Shown here piece after piece: positions 7,318 to 20,999 of a stretch of DNA of 64,000 bases (position 1 is the stretch's first letter; every line of letters begins with the position of its first letter). The position numbers and the translations under genes are program-made. The notes beneath the pieces were generated by a model. The model ran no database searches. It was not told the DNA's origin and saw only the letters and a program-made list of their open reading frames with translations. Source of the DNA: Escherichia phage vB_Eco_Tribble. The DNA is taken from the sequence record OX016465, one strand, 5' to 3'.

Positions 7318-15333
<8,016 letters not shown>

Positions 15334-15335
15334 TA

Positions 15336-16484
15336 ATGGCAGTAGGTGAAATTCAAATTAGTGCCTTGCCTCAAGCAGCCTTACCAATTGACCTTAGTGA
15401 TATCTTCCATCTTAAACAGGGTATCGAGGATAAGAGATGTACTCTTGAGCAATTACTTGCTCCACACTCAAGCCTAAGAAATAACCCACATGGTGTTACT
15501 AAGACACAAATTGGTTTAGATAACGTTATTAATGCTCTCCAGTTAGTTGCTGAAAATAACTTATCAGATATTGTTAATGTAGCTGAGGCAAGAGCGAATC
15601 TACAGATTATGTCTTCAGAAGAGGTTAATAATCTTATTCAACAGCATATTGATGATAAGAGCAACCCACACAATACTACTAAGGCACAGGTTGGGTTAAG
15701 CAATGTTCAGAACTGGGTGACATCTAACCTTTATAATGAGGATGCAGATAAGTATGCTACAGCAAGAGCAGTAAATAACTTGTACAAGGCTGTTCAGGCT
15801 TCTTATCCAGTAGGTACTATCCATCTCTCTATGAATCCTGCAAACCCTTCTACATATTTAATTTGTGGAGGTACTTGGGAGTTAGTTTCAAAAGGAAGAG
15901 CACTTGTAGGTTATGATAGTGCTTCTAGGCCAGTTGGTTCAACGTTTGGTTCGCAGACTACTGCACTGACAGTTAACAACATTCCTGCACATACTCACTC
16001 AGTATACGTCACTGGTGGTGGTCACACACACGGTGCAACGGCCTCTATCAGTGCTTTTGACTACGGTACTAAAGGGACTACAACGTTTGACTATGGAACA
16101 AAGACTGTATCTACTTATGACTATGGTAACAGAACAACCAGTGCTGCTGGTTTAACACAAACAACATTCATTAATCGTGGTTATGCTGATGGTGGTTGGA
16201 GAGGTTTATCAGTTGAGGGGGCAAGCTATGACCCAAGAGCTACGCTGACAACAGCTAACAACCACACTCACTCTGTAGCAATTGGTGCGCATAATCACAC
16301 AGTGGGGATTGGTGCTCACAGCCATTCTGTTGCAATTGGTTCCCACAACCACTCAGCAACAGTAACAGTAACCGGAGCAGGTGAGCATTCGCACTCTGGC
16401 ACAACTGGCACAACTGGTTCTGGTCAAGCGTTTAGCGTTGAACAGCCATCCTTCGTATTGTATGTATGGCAGAGAACAGCTTAA
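15336..16484 (+). CDS. Tail fibre protein with tail-fibre repeats and His-x-His tip
   Basis: Repeated NPHxxTKxQ(I/V)GLxNV motifs; C-terminal HTHS/AHNHT/AHSHS/SHNHS repeats; C-terminus resembles that of the next gene. Confidence 0.6.
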   Translation: MAVGEIQISALPQAALPIDLSDIFHLKQGIEDKRCTLEQLLAPHSSLRNNPHGVTKTQIGLDNVINALQLVAENNLSDIVNVAEARANLQIMSSEEVNNLIQQHIDDKSNPHNTTKAQVGLSNVQNWVTSNLYNEDADKYATARAVNNLYKAVQASYPVGTIHLSMNPANPSTYLICGGTWELVSKGRALVGYDSASRPVGSTFGSQTTALTVNNIPAHTHSVYVTGGGHTHGATASISAFDYGTKGTTTFDYGTKTVSTYDYGNRTTSAAGLTQTTFINRGYADGGWRGLSVEGASYDPRATLTTANNHTHSVAIGAHNHTVGIGAHSHSVAIGSHNHSATVTVTGAGEHSHSGTTGTTGSGQAFSVEQPSFVLYVWQRTA

Positions 16485-16530: not shown

Positions 16531-18864
16531 ATGGCAGATTACAAGTTGAGTGAATTAAACTCAATTGATACAATTCGTTCAGACGACCTCCTTCATGTCA
16601 GGGTTAAAAAGAGACCTGAAATGCTGGGTGATGAAGACCGTCGAATGACCTATCAAGACTTCTTAGCGTCTTTTAAACTAGAAAGATTTGTTCAGATTGC
16701 TGGTAGCACTATGACGGGTGACTTAGGGATTGTTAAGTTACTTTATGGTGGTAAGGCAGTCTTTGACCCTACAGGCTCTTCTGAGATTACTATGGGGGAT
16801 GTTTTAAAGACTTTTAAAATTAATGCAAATGGTCTTAAACTAACTATTGCAGATGCTTCAAGGTCTGCAACTGTTTATCATACTCTTAATAAGCCAAGCC
16901 CTAATGAACTTGGGATGAGAACTAATGCTGAGAATGATGCTAGATATGCTAGATTAGAAGTACTAAATACTTTTAAGTCTAGGCAGACAATTGTAGCAGA
17001 TGGTCAAGCACTGTTGTTAAGAAGTGCAACTGATAGCCCTTCTCTCTATGTTAGAGGTCAAGACCCATCTGGAACTAATAAATGGTATGTTGGATTTAAT
17101 ACTTCAAATGTTCTTGGATTATCAAATGAAGCCTCTGGCACGACATTGACATTGGATTCAGCAGGTATTAATTCTAATAAGAATTTAAATATCACTGGTC
17201 AGGTTAAACCTTCAGACTGGTCTAACCTAGATGATAGATACTTTACCCAAACATTGGCTAATCAAAGATTTGCACAGTTGGCTGGTAATAACACTTTTAA
17301 CGGCACTAATACATTCAACCAACTGAGTGTTTTCAAAAAAGATGGTGAAGCAATTAGGCTACAGAATGCCAATGCTGCACAACCATTGTACATTAAAGCA
17401 ATTGATAGCACAGGTGTCAACAGATGGTACATTGGTAATAGTAACGAAGGTGATAACGTAGCTCTAGAAAACTACAAAACTAGTGGCAAGATTACTGTAG
17501 GGACAAGTGTTAATATCAATAAAACACTAACTGTAACTGGTCAAGTTCAACCTTCAGATTGGACTAACATTGACTCTAGATATATTCCGGCAGCAACATT
17601 AAGCACTCTTGCAAAAATTAATGCTAAGAATACTTTTTCTCAAGGTCAGATTATTAAGGCTGATGGAGAGGGTATTAGGCTTCAAGGGGTAAATGATACT
17701 GGTGGTTTGTTCTTGCAAGGTTATACTTCTGATGGTGCTAAAAAGTGGTTTATGGGTACTAATGCTTCAGGAAACTTTACTATCAGGGAGATGGTGTTAG
17801 GTACTGAACTGTCTCTTAGAGAGAACTATATCCAGTTTAATAAGAATGTAACAATCACTGGGCAGGTTCAACCATCAGACTGGACTAACCTAGATAAAAG
17901 GTACTATACCGGTTCAGCATCAAACGCCAGATACATGTATGCAGGAAAAACTGGTGAAGGTGATAATGATGCTGCTATTGCTTGGGATGCTAAGACAGGG
18001 CTGTATAATGTCAAGACTGGAGCTACATCATCAAATCTTTTACTTCAGTTATATCAGGGGTCTGAGTCATCTACACCGTCTGCGCAGCTAAGATTTAAAT
18101 GGGCGAATGGTGGTATGTGGTATAGGACATCAAGAGATGGTGATGGCTTTGAGAAAAGTTGGGCTATGGTGTACACAACTGCACAGAAGCCAACCCCTTC
18201 AGATATTGGTGCATACACTAAAGCAGAAACTGACCAGAAGATTGCACAGGCAGTAAGTGATTCAACAGACCTTAATAAAATCTACCCTGTTGGTATTGTA
18301 ACGTGGTTTAACAGTAACGTTAACCCTAATACAGCACTGCCTGGTCTAACTTGGACGTACCTTAACAATGGTGTAGGTAGAACAATCAGGATTGCAGCAG
18401 CTAACGGTTCAGATGTTGCTACAACTGGTGGTTCAGATTCTGTAACGTTATCTGTTGGTAACTTACCTTCACACACACACAGTTTTTCTGCTACTACTTC
18501 GTCTTTTGACTACGGAACAAAAAACACTAACACGACTGGTGCTCACACCCACTCTGTAAGTGGTTCTACTTCATCTGCTGGTAACCACAGCCACTCTATT
18601 TCGTGGATTGGTCAGAACTCACAGCACTATTCCGGTGGTGGTGGTGGTTACATTGGTACAGGGCCGGGTTACACCGATGCTAACGGTGCTCACACCCACT
18701 CTGTAAGTGGTACTGCCGCTTCTGCTGGTAACCATGCTCACAGTGTTGGTATTGGTGCTCACAGTCATACAGTTAGTGGTAACACTGGTGGTACAGGTTC
18801 TGGTTCAGCATTTAGTGTTACTAACCAGTTCTATAAGTTAATGGCTTGGGTGAGGACTGCTTAA
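16531..18864 (+). CDS. Long tail fibre / receptor-binding protein with internal ~100-aa repeats and His-x-His tip
   Basis: Four repeat modules each ending in T(I/V)TGQV(K/Q)PSDW(S/T)N(L/I)D(D/S/K)RY; C-terminal HTHS/NHSHS/AHSHT motifs; C-terminus …SGSAFSV…WVRTA parallels the 15336 gene. Confidence 0.65.
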
Positions 18865-18943: not shown

Positions 18944-19138
18944 ATGCCTACAATCCTAGCAATTCTCCTAAAAAATCTAGGTAGTTTCTTCTGGAAACTC
19001 ATTTTATCTCTTCTAAGTGAATACATGATTGAGAAAGTGTTCTTTAAGCTTGCAAGATACCTTGCGGGTAAGACAGACACCCCTATTGATGATGAATTCG
19101 TAGATAACTTAGAAAAAGCTTTTAAGGGGGAGAAATAA
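18944..19138 (+). CDS. Small hydrophobic protein (possible holin-like)
   Basis: 64 aa with hydrophobic N-terminal segment; at the 3' end of the late operon. Confidence 0.25.
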   Translation: MPTILAILLKNLGSFFWKLILSLLSEYMIEKVFFKLARYLAGKTDTPIDDEFVDNLEKAFKGEK

Positions 19139-19510
19139 ATGAAGTGGATAGAGGAAGCTTTTAAAAATAATATTGGTGCAATTGTTGTTGGTATTTTTAG
19201 TGTTATTGGGATGTATACCACGATGCAAGTTTCAAGTGGTAAGCAAGAGGTGTCTGTCACAACAAAATTACAGCAGCTAGATAATTATAGCAAATCTAAT
19301 TACTCAGCTATTCGTGATTTACAGTCTGACATAAGACTTATTCAGTTAGGGATGGAGAACCAGAAAGTTCAGTTAGAGAATGTTAAGGGTGAGAATGCAA
19401 AACTTACCAAAACTCTTGATAAATTCTCTGACAGTGTGAATAATCTGGCTCAATCAGTATCAGCCCTCCAAGCTATTACTGAAAAGAACACAAAGAATAC
19501 TGAAAAATAA
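19139..19510 (+). CDS. Membrane-anchored coiled-coil protein
   Basis: N-terminal TM-like segment (IGAIVVGIFSVIGMY) followed by a coiled-coil-like region. Confidence 0.3.
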   Translation: MKWIEEAFKNNIGAIVVGIFSVIGMYTTMQVSSGKQEVSVTTKLQQLDNYSKSNYSAIRDLQSDIRLIQLGMENQKVQLENVKGENAKLTKTLDKFSDSVNNLAQSVSALQAITEKNTKNTEK

Positions 19511-19516
19511 AATTTA

Positions 19517-19550
19517 AGGCTCCTTTTTACGGGAGCCTTTTTTTTTTTTG
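19517..19550. terminator. Bidirectional intrinsic terminator between convergent modules
   Basis: AGGCTCC-TTTTTAC-GGGAGCC hairpin followed by 12 T; sits between the end of the plus-strand late operon (19510) and the end of minus-strand thyA (19553). Confidence 0.7.
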
Positions 19551-19552
19551 TT

Positions 19553-20452
19553 TTACTTACCTACTGACAGAGGTGCTTCAATCTTTCCTGCATGTTGGTA
19601 GTTGCTAATACCACCAATAAAATCACTTGCGGTAAGGTGTTTTAGGTCACTTAGCGTGTTAAGCTGCACACCAATCTCAAAAGTAGGCGCATGGAACTCT
19701 TTATTGTTCATCAGTTCATAAACCTGCTTCATATGGTTCTGATAAATCTGAGTATCCCCAAAGACACCTATCAAGTACCGTGGAGTATATCCAGTCATCT
19801 TGCAAAGTACTTCCAGAATAAAACCATAAGATGCAATGTTAAATGGAAGACCTAAAAAGGTGTCTACAGAACGTTGATACCATTGTAAGTCAACCTCACC
19901 TTCGTTAGTGATATAAATCTGAAACAGAACATGACAAGGTGCTAAAGCCATTGAGTTAGCTGCAATATCTGCTGCATTCCAAGCATTAACAAGCATGTAA
20001 CGGTCTGTGATATCACCTTTCATCTTCGTTACTAAGGTCTCTAACTGGTCTACAACACAACCGTTATGACCTTCAAAGTTTCTCCACTGAACCCCGTAGA
20101 TTCTCCCACCTGCATCTTCTAACCAGTCTTGCTCAGAAGAATAGTTAGAGCTTAACCAGCGTTTAAAATCATCTGACCAGATAGTCCAACGTTCCCCATC
20201 ATTTTCACCCCAAGTACGGTAACGGAGTTCACCAAGTTTATTCTCACCATTCAGGAACCATAAAGCTTCCCCAATAACTTGCCGTGTAAACACCTGTTTA
20301 GATGTTAAGAGTGGGAAACCAGTACGCATATCAAAACGAAATTTTGGTGGAGCAAATGCAGAGATAACATCTCCAGTTCGTGTAGTACGCAGTTCACCAA
20401 CGGATAAAACATGGTTCAGGATATTTTTGTAACTCAAATCAGCTTGTGACAT
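19553..20452 (-). CDS. thyA: Thymidylate synthase
   Basis: Conserved ThyA motifs: FPLLTSK, EALWFLNGE, IYGVQWR, ALAPCH, LGLPFNIASY. Confidence 0.9.
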   Translation of the reverse strand: MSQADLSYKNILNHVLSVGELRTTRTGDVISAFAPPKFRFDMRTGFPLLTSKQVFTRQVIGEALWFLNGENKLGELRYRTWGENDGERWTIWSDDFKRWLSSNYSSEQDWLEDAGGRIYGVQWRNFEGHNGCVVDQLETLVTKMKGDITDRYMLVNAWNAADIAANSMALAPCHVLFQIYITNEGEVDLQWYQRSVDTFLGLPFNIASYGFILEVLCKMTGYTPRYLIGVFGDTQIYQNHMKQVYELMNNKEFHAPTFEIGVQLNTLSDLKHLTASDFIGGISNYQHAGKIEAPLSVGK

Positions 20453-20453
20453 A

Positions 20454-20999
20454 TCAAAAGTGTCCTTTTACTTGTGGAACATAGATTTCAAAGGTTGCTT
20501 TACCATCATCTGAAGGTCTCGACTGCACCTTTGCAAATACACGGTTATCATACAGCTTATCAAAGAAGTTTTCAAAAGGTAAATACACAGTGGTCTCTTC
20601 AGTAACTTTATGGAAAACTGTATGGAAAACTACACCAGCATATGGTAAAGCATCGACAAGAACACCTGCACCACCAATTACAAAGACATCTTCATCAATA
20701 GAGCTATCAAGATACTTCAAAAATGCTCCAAAGGACTCTTTGCTGGCCTTAGCATACATTACATCTTCTTTACCAAAATCTATACCATAATAAGGTACAG
20801 AGTTTGTTAAGATAAGGTTTTCACGTTCAGGTAAAGGCTTACTACCCAGAGTCTTAAAAGTCTCATTGCCCATAACTACTAAGTTGTTTTTAGTAAGTCT
20901 CTTAAACTCTTGCATATCTTGCTTATGTCGAGGCCACGGCATACCAGTTGGAGTACCAAACTCCCCATTTTCACCACTTGCAAAGATTAATTTAATCAT
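20454..20999 (-). CDS. folA: Dihydrofolate reductase
   Basis: DHFR-like N-terminus (MIKLIFA…GMPW…) and GG-containing core; adjacent to thyA as in T4 frd-td. Confidence 0.75.
   Translation of the reverse strand: MIKLIFASGENGEFGTPTGMPWPRHKQDMQEFKRLTKNNLVVMGNETFKTLGSKPLPERENLILTNSVPYYGIDFGKEDVMYAKASKESFGAFLKYLDSSIDEDVFVIGGAGVLVDALPYAGVVFHTVFHKVTEETTVYLPFENFFDKLYDNRVFAKVQSRPSDDGKATFEIYVPQVKGHF

Follow-up and report, generated by a model that had tools for sequence, protein, structure and literature searches.

Tail fibre genes of Escherichia phage vB_Eco_Tribble: two histidine-rich, gp37-like tips and a long-fibre shaft with three paralogous modules and cassette mosaicism

Why do both tail fibre genes of one phage end in clusters of closely spaced histidines, and from how many repeated domains is the longer fibre built? 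These questions are raised by a stretch of 64,000 nucleotides (nt) from Escherichia phage vB_Eco_Tribble (sequence record OX016465), which we call the window and whose first letter is position 1. A sequence-only reading had placed two fibre genes at 15336..16484 and 16531..18864, and open reading frames (ORFs) of 382 and 777 amino acids (aa) are found there, both on the plus strand. Taking the evidence as a whole, we consider it very probable that the locus encodes two fibres with tips of the gp37 type, that the long fibre has a shaft with three paralogous domains, that the needles of the tips are stapled by metal and that the genes are composed of recombining cassettes. Much of this is already known, as reports of 2025 on the orthologues of phages Bas63 and Sf14 cover the architecture, the counts of His-x-His (HxH) motifs, the shared T4-like tip and the variable beta domains. 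The cassette mosaicism appears, as far as we have seen, to add to that literature. The two genes are as follows.

15336..16484, plus strand: short tail fibre (STF) gene, 382 aa; orthologue of Bas63 gp26 (98% identical); phrog_2097, tail fiber (1e-127)
16531..18864, plus strand: long tail fibre (LTF) gene, 777 aa; orthologue of Bas63 gp27 (67% identical, collinear); phrog_4277 over its full length

Over the 3.5 kb of the fibre genes, the sequence agrees to 99.9% with that of Escherichia phage vB_EcoM_Alf5, a member of Felixounavirus, and parts of it are matched by about 240 Felix-O1-like genomes. Orthology to gp26 and gp27 is confirmed by full-length collinear alignments (98% and 67% identity) and by the conserved position behind the baseplate wedge and platform genes. 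Judged from these alignments, the two ORFs are the short and the long tail fibres of a Felix-O1-like coliphage. In the 2025 cryo-electron microscopy study of Bas63 (Escherichia phage JohannRWettstein), gp26 forms a short fibre of 430 Å and gp27 a long fibre of 630 Å, their tips have a T4-gp37-like collar, needle and head with seven and six di-histidine motifs, respectively, and the long fibre contains five beta-helix repeat domains parted by helix-and-turn motifs (PMC12609058). Across the genus, the tips and beta domains 2-5 are highly variable, the number of repeats being constant (PMC12609058). For gp52 and gp53 of Shigella phage Sf14, domains resembling the T7 gp17 pyramid, the Mu fibre, the T4 gp37 tip and the gp10 C-terminus have been described; Mu-type chaperones are absent, and the core of lipopolysaccharide (LPS) is the receptor class of these phages (PMC11821841). 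The locus studied here shares with Bas63 (MZ501086) its gene order and product lengths (489, 285, 100 and 382 aa; the LTF has 784 aa in Bas63 versus 777 here), the seven and six HxH motifs, the five-domain shaft and the variability of beta domains 2-5 and of the tip. It differs in that the LTF module bodies, fifth domain and head belong to other sequence types and in that the head-proximal motif is NHSH rather than HHNH. Neither the Bas63 nor the Sf14 paper describes a paralogy of three among the five shaft domains or a reassortment of cassettes, and nothing on these fibre genes was found in the PhageMaP and receptor-prediction preprints.

The composition of the long fibre up to its tip can be read from the following features.

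16531..16953, plus strand: N-terminal baseplate-binding region and first beta domain, aa 1-141, with a linker at its end; 92-100% conserved in 120 homologues, not homologous to modules 1-3
16954..17277, plus strand: repeat module 1, PF20744 type, aa 142-249 (module profile 8e-55; Pfam)
17299..17607, plus strand: repeat module 2, PF20744 type, aa 257-359 (module profile; Pfam)
17617..17940, plus strand: repeat module 3, PF20744 type, aa 363-470 (module profile; Pfam)
17971..18267, plus strand: fifth shaft domain, PF12604 gp37_C / Mu fibre S-like, aa 481-579, with a linker at its end (Pfam 8e-16, 58.4 bits, cut-off 22.5)

The LTF had been read as four tandem modules, each closed by a copy of TGQV[KQ]PSDW[ST]N[LI]D[DSK]RY. 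This number does not stand: a regular expression finds the motif three times (aa 222, 336 and 443), and three modules are likewise obtained from pairwise statistics, a hidden Markov model (HMM) of the module and Pfam. The duplication itself is borne out, the three modules of about 107-114 aa being paralogues by alignment statistics and by Pfam. A BLASTP search of the LTF against itself returned no off-diagonal high-scoring segment pairs, and in its place segments were compared with shuffled sequences by Smith-Waterman alignment (M0, aa 30-148; M1, 149-237; M2, 238-351; M3, 352-458; M4, 459-575). M1, M2 and M3 align pairwise with z = 26-32, a score that none of 300 shuffles attains, and share 36-40% identity and 25 invariant columns. 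PF20744 (gp37_trimer) is matched in three LTF stretches (E 2.8e-51, 171.9 bits, cut-off 21.7), and at the DNA level an 82-nt linker repeat occurs three times with 71-82% identity, at spacings of 342 and 321 nt. We therefore regard the middle three shaft domains as paralogues that probably arose by tandem duplication.

How the two flanking domains relate to these three is less evident. It is possible, though on balance unlikely, that the LTF holds four or five copies of one ancestral module and that aa 30-148 and 459-575 have diverged beyond recognition in sequence. Five linkers of the type [KQ]P[ST][PD] (aa 121, 226, 340, 447 and 553) close the five domains, in agreement with the five beta-helix repeat domains described for Bas63, AlphaFold2 (AF2) predicts a beta-sheet domain in M4 as well, and a weak module match to Mu fibre S residues 356-443 overlaps the region that M4 matches (326-426 of PDB 8JU3). 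However, M0 and M4 show no pairwise similarity to M1-M3 (z at most 1.7), alignment of a profile of M1-M3 with those of M4 and M0 in hhalign recovers only boundary residues (probabilities 30% and 1%), M4 falls in a different Pfam family, PF12604, and its slot is filled by unrelated sequences in some homologues. What M0 and M4 have in common is only a linker of about 29 aa, VY.T..KP.P...G..T.AE.D. The earlier count of four probably arose because five similar linkers exist in the LTF. A shaft of five domains, three of which are paralogues as far as sequence comparison can tell, reconciles that count with the five domains of Bas63; each of the five would be a beta domain with a conserved (K/Q)P(S/T)(P/D)... 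helix-turn linker at its end.

The folds to which these domains are related are recognizable. A profile built from 37 diverse copies of the module matches the pyramid domain of T7 gp17 (residues 368-435, E 4.8e-7), its match to Mu fibre S mentioned above being weak (E 0.02), and LTF aa 470-571 match residues 326-426 of the Mu fibre (8JU3) with E 7.1e-21. In the AF2 monomer of the LTF, only the module bodies and the fifth domain are modelled with confidence, as five-stranded sheets with a predicted local distance difference test (pLDDT) score of about 75-89; used as a Foldseek query, the monomer yields the Mu fibre as the top match, together with T4 gp34 and T7 gp17 (4A0U/4A0T). The T7 fibre has a single pyramid domain directly under its tip, unlike the LTF with three such copies in tandem in the shaft, followed by other domains, although the module profile aligns to the T7 domain (PDB 4A0T/4A0U, 7BOZ). 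Similarly, the fifth domain aligns to the Mu fibre S/S' (PDB 8JU3, 5YVQ; PF12604), but in Mu this domain lies near the distal end and needs the Tfa chaperone, whereas here it is internal, is followed by a T4-type tip and has no Tfa homologue.

A comparison of repeat number among relatives, which the sequence-only reading had proposed, was made with the module HMM. It returned exactly three copies in all 121 LTF sequences of the genus (121/121) rather than the four expected; strict and relaxed regular expressions for the linker gave zero to three copies in homologues, a misleading result, and were not used for counting. Beyond the genus, a profile search of 1.8 billion representative sequences recovered 236 proteins with the module, mostly in one or two copies. 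Two distant relatives of the LTF carry more: P0121 (1015 aa) has five modules and six HxH motifs, and P0122 (901 aa) has four modules and five HxH motifs. Both keep LTF-like N- and C-termini and tips with His boxes, and no close cultured relative of either was found. Modules 3 and 5 of P0121 are 64% identical, which suggests a later internal duplication.

The second question concerns the histidines, for which the tips of both fibres have to be considered.

18274..18465, plus strand: LTF collar, aa ~582-645; aligns to the STF collar, 96-99% conserved
18466..18594, plus strand: LTF ascending needle strand, HxH at aa 648, 672 and 686; aligned to 2XGF, His 97-100% conserved
18595..18690, plus strand: LTF head loop, aa 689-720; predicted to bind the receptor as the distal tip, aligned with region 933-959 of the T4 gp37 tip
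18691..18864, plus strand: LTF descending needle strand, HxH at aa 721, 735 and 744, with C-terminal GSGSAFSV...WVRTA
15336..15764, plus strand: STF N-terminal baseplate-binding region; two helix-turn motifs NPH..TK.Q.GL.NV (aa 50, 110), role from the Bas63 structure description
15765..15989, plus strand: STF collar, T4 gp10 C-terminal / gp37 collar type, aa ~144-218; PF21939 Gp10_C (1.6e-17, 65 bits, cut-off 27)
15990..16115, plus strand: STF ascending needle strand, HxH at aa 219 and 230; three FDYGTK-type repeats, His 100% conserved in 71 homologues
16116..16262, plus strand: STF hypervariable head, predicted distal receptor-binding loop, aa ~261-309; between His boxes like the T4 gp37 head
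16263..16484, plus strand: STF descending needle strand, five HxH (aa 310, 319, 328, 337 and 351), with C-terminal GSGQAFSV...WQRTA

The clustering of HxH motifs in both genes, claimed earlier, is confirmed: there are seven in the 382-aa and six in the 777-aa protein, confined to about the last 170 and 135 aa, and they are placed 2+5 around the head in the STF and 3+3 in the LTF. The strings AHTHSV, GNHSHS and AHSHTV and the common ending GSG(Q/S)AFSV...W(Q/V)RTA are all present. The needle of T4 gp37 (2XGF) is matched by LTF aa 642-756 (E 5.3e-18) and STF aa 146-352 (E 3.2e-14), the STF collar also matches the gp10 structures 2FKK/5HX2 as well as 2XGF and is modelled by AF2 with a pLDDT of 84-87 at aa 150-180, and the PF03335 His-box repeats are found in the LTF (1.2e-8, 34.7 bits, cut-off 20). 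In the ungapped part of the alignment, H686 and H688 of the LTF coincide with H929 and H931 of gp37. The T4 needle holds seven iron atoms, H929 and H931 are iron ligands whose replacement by alanine (H929A, H931A) abolishes plaque formation, and residues 933-959 form the receptor-binding tip (Islam et al., 2019).

All 12 histidines of the LTF motifs are 97-100% conserved among 120 cluster representatives (67-100% identical); these sequences vary mostly in the fifth domain, the head loop (46-71% identity) and the module 1-3 bodies, and hardly at all in the N-terminus, collar and needle. The 14 STF histidines are 77-100% conserved in 71 homologues (39-98% identical), the lower values arising because homologues differ in the number of His boxes; identity in the STF head falls to 10-31%. 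Conservation of these residues, on which the case for metal-binding tips had been staked beforehand, is thus seen in the LTF (n = 120) and in the STF (n = 71). Could the motifs nevertheless be a by-product of low complexity, that is, of Gly/Ser/His-rich repeats with no role in metal binding? The tip region is repetitive and rich in Gly, Ser and Thr. However, shuffles of the tip region contain about one HxH on average, and the observed counts are attained in 0 of 20000 (STF) and 2 of 20000 (LTF) shuffles of the same composition, which makes the H-x-H spacing specific; moreover, the histidines are all conserved while their neighbours vary, and they align at residue level to experimentally verified iron ligands of T4 gp37. 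We give this explanation hardly any credence. Metal-coordinating tips, as suggested by the sequence-only reading, are supported by the similarity of both C-terminal regions to the iron-binding needle (2XGF) together with the conserved histidines.

One element of the earlier picture needs to be turned round. The C-terminus had been taken for the distal tip of the fibre, yet homology to T4 gp37 and the model of Bas63 both point to a chain that would turn at the head, between the His boxes, and run back with its C-terminus to the collar. As the gp37 tip region aligns with the internal loop at LTF aa 689-720, between the third and fourth His boxes, this loop is predicted to be the distal end that faces the receptor. 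We infer that the chain reverses at the head and that three chains would form a six-stranded, interwoven needle. In the arrangement that we propose, the STF and the LTF would each be homotrimers anchored to the baseplate by their N-termini, and the tip module of both would comprise a gp10/gp12-like collar, the needle, in which every chain runs outward and returns, and a small head loop where it reverses. As each chain contributes two histidines per HxH, three chains would provide six ligands, in octahedral coordination, for one metal ion (iron in T4), so that six ions in the LTF and seven in the STF are predicted to staple the needle. Contact with the LPS core is likely to be made by the variable loop of the head, which lies between the His boxes.

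Several observations weigh against this arrangement. The LTF collar scores 23.5 bits with PF21939 Gp10_C, below the cut-off of 27; the AF2 model of the STF is of low confidence at the tip, and a Foldseek search with it gave no significant fold match; and the AF2 monomer of the LTF tip (aa 578-777) has a pLDDT of 30-40 and is unreliable, as is the N-terminus. The fibre density of Bas63 is too poor for side-chain modelling (PMC12609058), so that iron coordination in the genus is extrapolated from T4. Finally, the LTF mutations reported in a related phage after challenge with Salmonella (PMC6669636) affect the fifth domain, at aa 497 and 534, and not the predicted head.

The likeness to T4 gp37 (2XGF) comprises the needle (plus the collar in the STF), HxH motifs on outgoing and returning strands and a variable head between them. 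In other respects the systems differ: the LTF has six HxH and a shorter needle versus seven HxH in T4, one polypeptide makes up the whole fibre, for which T4 uses four proteins (gp34-37), no gp38- or gp57A-like chaperone gene is seen beside the fibre genes, and the receptor is the LPS core, with no evidence for OmpC. Within the LTF gene, a 50-nt direct repeat (18538-18587 and 18685-18734, 90% identity) lies on the outgoing and returning needle strands and flanks the head loop; it is a possible site of out-of-register recombination or of head deletion. In the N-terminal region of the STF, the helix-turn motifs, located at 15483-15527 and 15663-15707 (aa 50-64 and 110-124), resemble sequences in many unrelated phage fibres, including those of Bacillus SPbeta-like phages (tblastn).

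If both tips are built alike, have they exchanged sequence? The sequence-only reading had offered module exchange or a common fold as explanations, and it is the common fold in a two-fibre system that finds support, both tips being T4 gp37-like. If the two genes had recently undergone gene conversion within this genome, this would account for the His boxes and the nearly identical last motif (GSG.AFSV...W.RTA) that end both genes, and short DNA repeats (D2, D6 and D8) do connect them. But the two tips share only 30% aa identity over about 250 aa, and DNA similarity between the genes is limited to His-box and linker pieces of 32-49 nt at 61-78% identity, which contradicts a recent exchange. Each type of tip is, moreover, conserved throughout the genus, and the STF is 98% but the LTF only 67% identical to its Bas63 counterpart, so that the genes evolve separately. 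We consider a recent exchange very improbable; the low aa identity, the short DNA matches and the unequal similarity to Bas63 argue instead that the two tips are old paralogues and that what they share is an old common fold. On sequence comparison, the STF and LTF genes assort independently. An STF with 98-100% identity is present in at least 26 phage records, among them those of Bas63 and Andreotti, in which the LTF is only 67-68% identical to the one described here.

Within the LTF, too, parts of the gene have separate relatives. The variable segments fall into about 14-16 types each at 70% identity, and 80 combinations of module types occur among 121 LTF proteins. The distance matrices of different segments are nearly uncorrelated (Spearman 0.05-0.18); collar, head and returning needle co-vary (Spearman 0.62-0.76). 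Module types are mostly specific to a slot, some occurring in both slot 1 and slot 3 with up to 87% identity. With the near-identical genomes of Alf5, pinkbiff and LinBro set aside, the body of module 1 is about 96% identical in nt to that of 19 Salmonella phages, the body of module 2 has relatives in about 15 phages, mostly of E. coli, at 88-99% (only one of them below 95%), the DNA of the module-3 body is shared only with HY02 and DE7, and that of the fifth domain has its only close relative in DE7 (89%). The LTF gene between 16963 and 18186 is a mosaic at the DNA level, the segments of which are related mostly to different phages, DE7 alone recurring (module 3 and fifth domain).

Whole replacements are observed in two slots. 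The fifth-domain slot (17911-18186, aa 461-552) is occupied by at least three unrelated replacements in some members of the genus, one of them about 60 aa longer, and the head slot by at least four unrelated cassettes between conserved His boxes (homologues P0063, P0082, P0095, P0117, P0118 and P0078). One type of head drops the two head-proximal HxH motifs, leaving four HxH in three of the four such variants examined, and another lengthens the tip. In both slots, the alternatives always have conserved linkers or His boxes as their borders. On these comparisons, the module bodies, the fifth domain and the head loop behave as cassettes that are shuffled independently of one another; the conserved linkers and His boxes between which they lie would act as the recombination joints at which these parts are swapped between phages. 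The same principle, exchange mediated by His boxes, has reportedly been described for T-even gp37 (by Tétart and colleagues in 1998). A comparative paper on Felixounavirus does not mention recombination.

What such a cassette-like shaft is good for is a modest remaining question. Perhaps the variable module bodies bind secondary glycan receptors with their lateral surfaces or are attacked by host defences, the host range being tuned by the swapping of cassettes. This is conceivable, if rather doubtful to our minds. The roughly 15 discrete types per slot reassort freely, types have moved between slots 1 and 3, the mutations acquired after exposure to a host (aa 497 and 534) fall in domain 5, and host recognition and defence escape are both named as possibilities by the authors of the Bas63 study (PMC12609058). 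However, a tolerance of surface residues to neutral change combined with recombination would yield the same pattern. Also, the host here is E. coli K-12, so that the module-1 body is common to a phage of this strain and to Salmonella phages; slot 1 does not track the host genus, which argues against a simple role in its choice. A more elaborate version is that the shaft is an array of slots and cassettes, with three pyramid-like paralogues and a fifth domain of about 15 types each, near-free reassortment at the helix-turn linkers and occasional shifts of slot or of copy number (from three to four or five), the diversity of which is selected through glycan binding or defence evasion rather than being neutral. 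We regard it as speculative and rather improbable in this full form.

With the reading that we prefer, two gp37-type tips and a shaft of five domains with exchangeable parts, the domains of both fibres can be mapped at residue level, and the repeat count is corrected to three paralogues among the five domains. The linker and His-box joints are obvious cut points for engineering the host range of Felix-O1-type phages, and they provide a handle on the question raised by the authors of the Bas63 study, namely why beta domains 2-5 vary so much.

The fibre genes are embedded in a plus-strand operon for structural proteins, with the following neighbours.

12702..15031, plus strand: baseplate wedge genes carrying the fibres; 489 aa, Baseplate_J (PF04865), wedge 2, and 285 aa, wedge 1; lengths match Bas63
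15031..15333, plus strand: 100-aa protein in the position of Bas63 gp25, the LTF platform (T4 gp9-like attachment point); of equal length to gp25, phrog_4141, role from the Bas63 paper
19516..19539, both strands: bidirectional terminator-like hairpin ending the structural operon; perfect 9-bp stem, T-run on each strand

Directly upstream of the STF gene lie the genes for the 489-aa Baseplate_J protein, the 285-aa baseplate protein and the 100-aa protein, the counterpart of which in Bas63 is a gp9-like platform for the long fibre (PMC12609058). Between the LTF gene and the operon terminator there are two small ORFs, 18944-19138 (64 aa, phrog_402) and 19139-19510 (123 aa, phrog_4038), whose phrog families have no known function. 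Neither has Tfa-, gp38- or gp57A-like matches that would identify a fibre chaperone next to the fibres; the 123-aa product shows faint coiled-coil matches of the spanin or tape-measure type. The hairpin at 19516-19539 divides the plus-strand structural operon from the minus-strand genes for thymidylate synthase and dihydrofolate reductase (19553-20999), and it coincides with a change in the sign of the GC skew near 20 kb.

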